The notes under the pieces were generated by a model. The model saw only the letters and a program-made list of their open reading frames with translations. It did no database searches and was not told the origin of the DNA. From Amphiscolops sp. MND2022 (Eukaryota), in contig OZ076409.1 of assembly GCA_964187785.1 (NCBI GenBank), positions 50,346,001 through 50,410,000 of the forward strand: a DNA stretch of 64,000 nucleotides, read 5' to 3'. Every line of letters begins with the position of its first letter. The stretch's first letter is position 1. Made by a program: the position numbers and the translations under genes. Below are positions 35,781 to 35,970 of this stretch, piece after piece.

Positions 35781-35970
35781 TTTTATACTACTTTGGTCAC
35801 GTGACTATTCCATATTTGGAAATGTTTACGCCTCGTTTTCCATAAAAGGAAGACATTTCCTTTTAAGGTAATGTTTGTGCGCTGTCATTCAAAATTTGTA
35901 TGTCATCCTTCCTTTTTAGGTAATGATTGCATTTCCTTTTATGGAAATCACGTGACTATTCCTTTTAAGG
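35781..35970. promoter_or_regulatory. Divergent promoter: six CArG boxes, two E-boxes, TATA box
   Basis: CC(A/T)6GG at 35810, 35840, 35859, 35911, 35935, 35961; CACGTG at 35798 and 35949; TATAAAA on the minus strand at 35781-35787. Confidence 0.7.

Follow-up and report, generated by a model that had tools for sequence, protein, structure and literature searches.

Mavericks, or Polintons, are defined by (AGT)2//(ACT)2 ends and a 6-bp target duplication (PMC8097293), and a study in corals states that an understanding of Polinton expression dynamics is lacking (PMC11131425). The available text of these two papers describes no promoter motifs for animal Polintons. The HTLV-1 LTR contains a viral serum response element (vCArG), and an intragenic SRF/ELK-1 enhancer has also been described for this virus (PMC3510432, PMC9065021). 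USF was discovered via the adenovirus major late promoter, where a USF site lies upstream of the TATA box, and CACGTGAC is the element that USF prefers (PMC4332324). In PgVV, mavirus and Sputnik, the promoter motifs match those of early or late promoters of the helper giant virus (10.1101/2022.07.28.501842). CC(A/T)6GG, the CArG box, is the site of SRF (PMC10178880, PMC4023608), and the growth-factor serum response element requires an Ets site beside it (PMC3510432, PMC4023608).

The locus described here lies in a 64,000-nucleotide stretch of DNA from Amphiscolops sp. MND2022, analyzed as a whole and referred to as the window. As in other animal Polintons and Mavericks, its element has (AGT)2//(ACT)2 ends, a 6-bp duplication and the hallmark genes (PMC8097293, PMC11131425). 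HTLV-1 offers one parallel, being an integrating virus that uses CArG boxes for host SRF in its own transcription; here the sites alone are seen and their use is predicted. HTLV-1 combines SRF with Ets/TCF, whereas the present DNA element has six boxes together with CACGTGAC and lacks CCGGA(A/T). A second parallel is the adenovirus major late promoter, which the locus resembles in its TATA box closely preceded by a putative USF-type E-box. Adenoviruses and Polintons are kin and, set beside the adenovirus gene layout, the E-box and TATA box of the Polinton stand at the head of a long leftward array in which packaging ATPase, capsid and protease genes are found. The Polinton differs in its six CArG boxes and in an E-box placed only 8 nt from the TATA box, and we treat the likeness as an analogy. 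In virophages and Polinton-like viruses, relatives of Polintons likewise use a recurring motif to borrow foreign transcription machinery; their motifs match giant-virus promoters, whereas those seen here match sites of nuclear polymerase II factors of the host. Cellular SRF targets (c-fos/Egr1 and the MRTF/myocardin cytoskeletal genes) share the exact CC(A/T)6GG sites in several copies near a TATA box, but TCF targets carry an Ets core, in place of which this locus has a USF-type partner site at a fixed distance (PMC4023608).

Viral enhancers assembled from host-factor sites are thus already known for SRF and for USF, and the Polinton case appears new. We found no description of a Polinton SRF/USF-type module in the accessible text of the literature; Repbase-style annotations or supplements might mention one. 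We read the first divergent intergenic region of the element, on sequence grounds, as a composite promoter for host SRF and a USF-type bHLH-ZIP factor, with a probability of about 0.7. A conserved, fixed-spacing SRF and bHLH-ZIP module would name two host factors for Polinton activation, and an animal Polinton would then run on host signalling-linked factors, not on a helper virus. If the boxes are inert, the cluster is a repeat within one family.

The Polinton element and its gene content

The element and the genes that bear on the argument are as follows.

27513..44998, 17,486 bp: Polinton/Maverick element with ends AGTAGT...ACTACT and a GACGAC target-site duplication on both sides
27503..28123, plus strand: left arm of the terminal inverted repeats as reported, 621 nt with a few flanking bases included, and 99% complementary to the right arm (44388-45008)
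44388..45008, minus strand: right terminal inverted repeat arm, partner of the left arm, as reported
35056..35634, minus strand: orf192, tandem PUR/PC4/Whirly-fold protein (Pur-alpha match, E 8.5e-5, probability 1.00)
36024..36623, plus strand: orf199, conserved protein whose relatives mostly begin at the equivalent of 36024
40027..44361, plus strand: putative protein-primed family B DNA polymerase region, interrupted in this copy: a first ORF at 40027-40974 carries C2H2 fingers and a second spans 41605-44361

Terminal inverted repeats, (AGT)2//(ACT)2 ends and a 6-bp target duplication identify the element as a Polinton/Maverick. Among its proteins, Pfam detects an integrase of the retroviral type (rve, E 1.7e-10) and an A32-like packaging ATPase (Pox_A32, E 9e-7), while an adenain-like protease is recognized below the Pfam cut-off (Peptidase_C5, E 0.0065); all three are hallmark genes of a Polinton. 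The capsid gene product is a probable double-jelly-roll major capsid protein, with a nearest cluster at 0.98 in which PF21738 is found on 30% of the members, and with a recognition value of 2220 that lies under the tool's 2300 mark. In the polymerase region, which is a split gene in this copy, putative polymerase motifs A, B and C were picked out by eye in the translation. The large polymerase ORF gave no Pfam or PDB match and no fitting PHROG match.

The element is organized around back-to-back genes. orf192 opens an array of 13 ORFs that follow one another head to tail on the minus strand and close with the capsid and protease genes; the gaps within this array are at most 55 bp, bar one of 113 bp. 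On the other side, orf199 points rightward; it gave no Atlas match, no Pfam family and no fold, and its single-sequence model is unusable at a pLDDT of 34. The element ends, the hallmark genes and the opposed orf192 and orf199 bear out the original prediction, a Polinton divergent promoter, to the extent that the CArG boxes lie in a divergent intergenic region of a Polinton. orf208 and orf137b were considered as further PC4-like proteins and this assignment is unsupported (hhalign probabilities 0.2 and 0.9). Rfam gave 0 matches within 27000-45500.

Several other features were observed in and around the element. Ahead of its ATG, the reading frame of orf192 continues without a stop for 31 codons (35635-35727, minus strand); some near relatives are called from this extension, and far relatives have unrelated residues there. 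Pyrimidine-AG runs precede the starts of orf84, orf137b, orf199, orf60, the EGF-like ORF, orf208 and the polymerase, the last with three such runs in steps of approximately 40 nt (39911, 39951, 39992); these are possible cis- or trans-splice acceptors. The terminal repeats contain, at 27655-27742 and 44769-44856, two units each, 51 nt apart, with ATTGG (a CCAAT box) and TGACG, and each has a 20-nt tandem array further in. Left of the element lie two BEL/Pao-type LTR retrotransposon coding regions (11270-17685, minus strand; 20617-25825, plus strand), whose domains point to an animal host, and dispersed arrays of a 22-nt unit occur outside it at 56738-57250 and 61852-61911.

CArG boxes, E-boxes and the TATA box of the divergent regions

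The two divergent intergenic regions of the element contain the following motifs.

35635..36023: first divergent intergenic region (region 1; 389 bp), between orf192 (minus strand) and orf199 (plus strand)
35780..35787, minus strand: TATA box TATAAAAG, facing orf192
35796..35805: E-box 1, perfect palindrome GTCACGTGAC
35810..35819: CArG box 1, separated from E-box 1 by 5 nt when read on the minus strand
35840..35849: CArG box 2, in a 15-nt inverted repeat with box 5
35859..35868: CArG box 3, in a 15-nt direct repeat with box 6
35911..35920: CArG box 4
35935..35944: CArG box 5, 3 nt ahead of E-box 2
35948..35956: E-box 2, TCACGTGAC
35961..35970: CArG box 6, separated from E-box 2 by 5 nt when read on the minus strand
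39292..40026: second divergent intergenic region (region 2), between orf208 and the polymerase, with CACGTGAC at 39398, perfect CArG boxes at 39444, 39721 and 39744, and one-mismatch boxes at 39506 and 39772

The original prediction of six perfect CC(A/T)6GG boxes within about 160 bp holds: all six are present in the order quoted, they span 161 bp, and each matches the SRF-type consensus exactly. Six boxes were seen in none of 20,000 dinucleotide shuffles of region 1 (mean 0.027 boxes, maximum 2), which answers the enrichment check that had been proposed. Across the whole window there are 15 perfect boxes against 4.26 expected, a number reached in 0 of 100 shuffles, and the densest 161-bp cluster across 300 whole-window shuffles holds 2 boxes. 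The length of the A/T core is also specific, since CC-W(n)-GG occurs in 35635-36024 six times with n=6 and is absent for n=3-5 and n=7-10. These shuffle tests speak for non-randomness and not for function. The spacings from box to box (30, 19, 52, 24 and 26 bp) follow no consistent helical phase. A longer orf199 frame opening at 35871 overlaps boxes 4-6; because most orf199 relatives begin at the equivalent of 36024, this start is probably an over-call and boxes 4-6 are probably non-coding.

The cores had been described as different from one another, and this is true of five of them, boxes 3 and 6 being identical. Region 1 contains two direct repeats and one inverted repeat, each of 15 nt; duplication accounts for part of the count, and the six boxes are not six independent events. 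The same repeats favor a reading in which the cluster arose through local expansion of repeats, was passed on by descent and has itself little or no function. Unrelated tandem repeats in other intergenic regions of the element are in keeping with this reading, while the maintenance of an exact CC-W6-GG by five different cores tells against it. We consider it improbable, and return to it below with the evidence from relatives.

Both E-boxes and the TATA box are found as predicted. On the plus strand TCACGTGAC occurs at 35797 and 35948, each time 4 nt ahead of a box; read on the minus strand, the same pairs have 5 nt between the box and TCACGTG. The TATA box TATAAAAG runs from 35787 to 35780 on the minus strand, only 8 nt from E-box 1, and the plus strand of region 1 has no TATA(A/T)A. 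CACGTGAC, which is the exact USF/TFE-type E-box consensus, occurs twice in region 1, as it does in 0 of 10,000 shuffles, and all three copies in the element fall in the two divergent regions. USF, MITF/TFE, SREBP and Myc/Max have this E-box core in common.

The distribution of boxes follows the same two regions. The element holds 13 of the 15 boxes in the window, with 2 in the remaining 46.5 kb, and 9 of these 13 lie in the 3,365 non-coding bp of its 17,486 bp (p 1.2e-4), all of them in the two divergent regions. Without the focal six, the non-coding bias is 3 of 7 boxes and is not significant (p 0.11). Region 2 is enriched on its own, with 3 boxes against a mean of 0.066 (0 of 10,000 shuffles), and its CACGTGAC at 39398 is the third and last copy in the element. 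Among the CArG boxes of region 2 there is also one AP-1-like site, TGA(C/G)TCA (39759-39765). A further perfect CArG box, at 28546-28555, lies at the junction where the capsid gene stops and the protease gene begins, and probably results from the close packing of these genes.

The boxes had been linked to growth-factor-induced and muscle genes, and neither link is borne out. The Ets core CCGGA(A/T) is absent from both divergent regions, where GGAA-like words are the ends or flanks of the boxes themselves, plus one more at 39942. Because this core is lacking, a classical growth-factor serum response element of the SRF and TCF kind is not supported. The muscle-gene reading fares no better, the E-box being of the USF type CACGTGAC and not myogenic.

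The sequence around the boxes bears on who might bind them. TT lies directly outside one end of all 9 intergenic boxes and of 1 of the 6 others (p 0.002, post hoc), and an NAA flank is found on 8 of 9 intergenic boxes against 2 of 6 others (p 0.09, not significant, post hoc). A/T-rich 3-bp flanks are typical of MADS sites, including those of SRF, with the NAA flank known from plant MADS proteins (PMC10178880). Flanks common to the boxes may also stem from duplication. Alternatively, the palindromes could be operators for a DNA-binding protein encoded by the element, their likeness to SRF and USF sites being coincidental. A longer pseudo-palindrome, flanked by TT/WA, is indeed common to the boxes, and candidate binders exist in the C2H2-finger N-terminus of the polymerase, the PUR/PC4-fold orf192, orf199 and other unassigned conserved proteins. 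For this to hold, however, an exact SRF consensus and an exact USF consensus would each have to have arisen by chance, independently, beside a canonical TATA box; the element proteins scanned with Pfam include no MADS or bHLH family; and PUR/PC4 folds bind single strands. We judge an element-encoded binder to be quite unlikely, and favor host SRF with a USF-type partner.

Retention of the box and E-box arrangement in relatives

Conservation in related elements had been proposed as a further check, and we assessed it at the protein level. In the protein collection, orf192 has 1,208 relatives and orf199 has 1,716; 120 of each were used, together with cluster members. The readout is the over-called N-termini of relatives, that is, gene calls that translate through their own promoter, so this evidence consists of translated gene-call artefacts and not of DNA. 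Sequences were kept when at least 60 residues aligned at 45-80% identity and the over-call comprised 15 residues or more, and two sets were used: 43 distinct over-calls for the spacer test, and 46 over-calls from all 686 proteins for the composite test. The over-called relatives have approximately 60-70% protein identity.

In the 43 distinct over-calls (<80% identity), 43 windows admit CC-W6-GG, whereas shuffles give 7.5 on average and 14 at most. Windows for CC-W4/5/7/8-GG number 14/16/4/0, inside the shuffle ranges, while the control GC-W6-GC also exceeds its shuffles (28 against a maximum of 25). The composite of a box, 5 nt and TCACGTG, spaced as in the focal element, is compatible with 12 of 46 over-calls (14 windows). 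On the composite side no fit is found for box-to-E-box spacings of 0-4 or 6-12 nt, and 200 shuffles give 0 composites; on the opposite side of the E-box a spacing of 6 is the sole fit (6 sequences). Where E-box windows have room for a box, 14 of 20 carry one and 6 of 20 do not. Peptides read from opposite strands are reverse-complement compatible in 2 of 50 left/right pairs, the first of which admits a single DNA word, a perfect composite, and the second two words, one of them a perfect composite. Successive E-box windows lie 48 nt apart in far relatives against 151 here; with the 5-nt composite still fitting, the grammar is retained while the layout has changed.

The carriers are themselves related. 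Seven left-gene carriers are 83-92% mutually identical and form one clade, and the three right-gene carriers placed in the tree fall into two clades, with P0654 and P0666 outside the tree. The retention therefore represents about three lineages, the window's own included, and not twelve independent cases. At this degenerate, protein-level resolution, the predicted conservation is found.

The relatives also inform the repeat-expansion alternative. Among 29 near-identical copies, motif codons show 13 changes in 16 codons against 23 in 35 for the others (anchor codons included), so the motif is not extra-conserved at this range; such unreduced change would result from neutral decay after insertion and equally from lack of function. 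One relative is still 72% DNA-identical across 1,146 bp of neighboring genes, which leaves room for simple descent. At that identity, however, the calculated probability that 11 fixed bases survive is approximately 0.03, the composite fits relatives of a different layout, and the best local matches to the left-gene over-calls are mostly centered on that composite. The CArG/E-box cluster is real, non-random and apparently under selection in the element lineage, and the fixed 5-nt gap across lineages would be the trace left by cooperating factors.

A third explanation invokes DNA structure, with the mirrored palindromes folding into a single-strand hairpin or a cruciform that would serve replication and be recognized by the PUR/PC4-fold protein. 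The segment 35781-35975 folds to -31.8 kcal/mol, against -12.4 +/- 3.1 for 200 shuffles, and when the sites are kept and the spacers shuffled only 5 of 300 sequences fold as well. Folding is as good in 49 of 300 flipped-box and 40 of 300 core-shuffled controls, which means that most of the hairpin energy comes from the palindromic sites. Far relatives, moreover, appear to carry the unit head to tail and not mirrored, and Polinton replication begins at the termini, so that we hold a replication hairpin to be very unlikely. Splicing offers a fourth reading, in which the boxes are signals of leader exons (a pyrimidine tract, then AG|GT). AG|GTAA does stand at the end of boxes 3, 4 and 6, and acceptor-like pyrimidine-AG runs lie ahead of several genes, but AG|GT is missing in 6 of 9 intergenic boxes, and the one far-family box that is fixed by both strands runs on into the E-box spacer and, reading as Trp-Lys, is incompatible with GT. 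We regard splice signals as the least credible of these explanations, and a host-factor promoter as the best account of the cluster.

Other searches for relatives yielded no homologous DNA of the promoter. The orf208 relatives include 4 short over-calls, none reaching region 2. Protein-based scans found no relative of orf192, the capsid protein or orf199 in viral contigs and no relative in genome contigs, and phage blastn gave 37-nt matches only (E 0.5). Metagenome contigs contributed 2 loci (L001 and L002), in which coverage is limited to the 3' end of orf192 plus the genes downstream of it and leaves out the promoter; their gene order orf192-orf137b-orf134(-orf150), at 70-72% DNA identity, shows a module common to a distant family. 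Scans with the composite pattern gave 0 matches at first and later 2 viral and 3 bacterial ones. These five were rejected as chance, being single and without similarity to the element, and the two viral matches sit inside a long ORF resembling an RNA-virus polymerase.

Proposed promoter mechanism and the EGF-like ORF

Taken with SRF as the animal MADS protein for CC(A/T)6GG, the arrangement allows a mechanism to be proposed in which we infer the identity of the binders, the promoter activity and the genes driven. Host SRF dimers would occupy the CC(A/T)6GG boxes, and a USF/TFE-type bHLH-ZIP dimer would occupy CACGTGAC, whose spacing to one of the boxes is constant. The pair would recruit host RNA polymerase II in both directions: leftward via the TATA box into the array, with the PUR/PC4-fold gene first and the capsid genes last, and rightward by TATA-less transcription into orf199. 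A weaker and sparser copy of the CArG/E-box grammar may serve the polymerase. The unit would have been multiplied through local duplication, and selection in a transmissible lineage would have held the grammar while the layout shifted. This suggests that the cluster is the main host-factor-driven promoter or enhancer of the Polinton family, with host cell state governing when it is switched on. That the region 1 promoter is inducible by signals is a possibility we put forward tentatively; it may equally act through an actin/MRTF route or be constitutively active.

A possible source of such a signal lies within the element itself:

37284..37532, minus strand: EGF-like ORF, 82 aa; its N-terminus is hydrophobic and its single EGF module most closely resembles HB-EGF

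The best solved matches of this ORF are the ErbB ligands HB-EGF (first, E 3.9e-7), neuregulin, betacellulin and epigen, and its six-cysteine spacing together with this similarity suggests a protein of the EGFR-ligand type. It has 97 relatives in the representative library, many of them proteins of approximately 80-120 residues. One could envisage a loop in which a secreted HB-EGF-like peptide would activate host EGFR signalling and, through SRF, the CArG/E-box promoters of the element. Integrated copies would then switch on jointly in wounded or proliferating tissue, a self-amplifying, cell-to-cell activation in a Polinton. We think this loop unlikely; it is speculation because the Pfam EGF match is below the cut-off (E 0.059) and the upstream region of the ORF has no CArG box.

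Two further repeat features were seen in the element. The 15-nt near-palindrome TTTTGTT-N-AACAAAA occurs at 33650 (minus strand) and 35996 (plus strand), just upstream of orf84 and orf199; these are its only two copies in the element, and the block at orf199 seems partly retained in far relatives. Between orf60 and the EGF-like ORF lie arrays of a 31-nt unit (36843-36930 and 37058-37252), with the core TTTTACAACGTGT in 8 copies.
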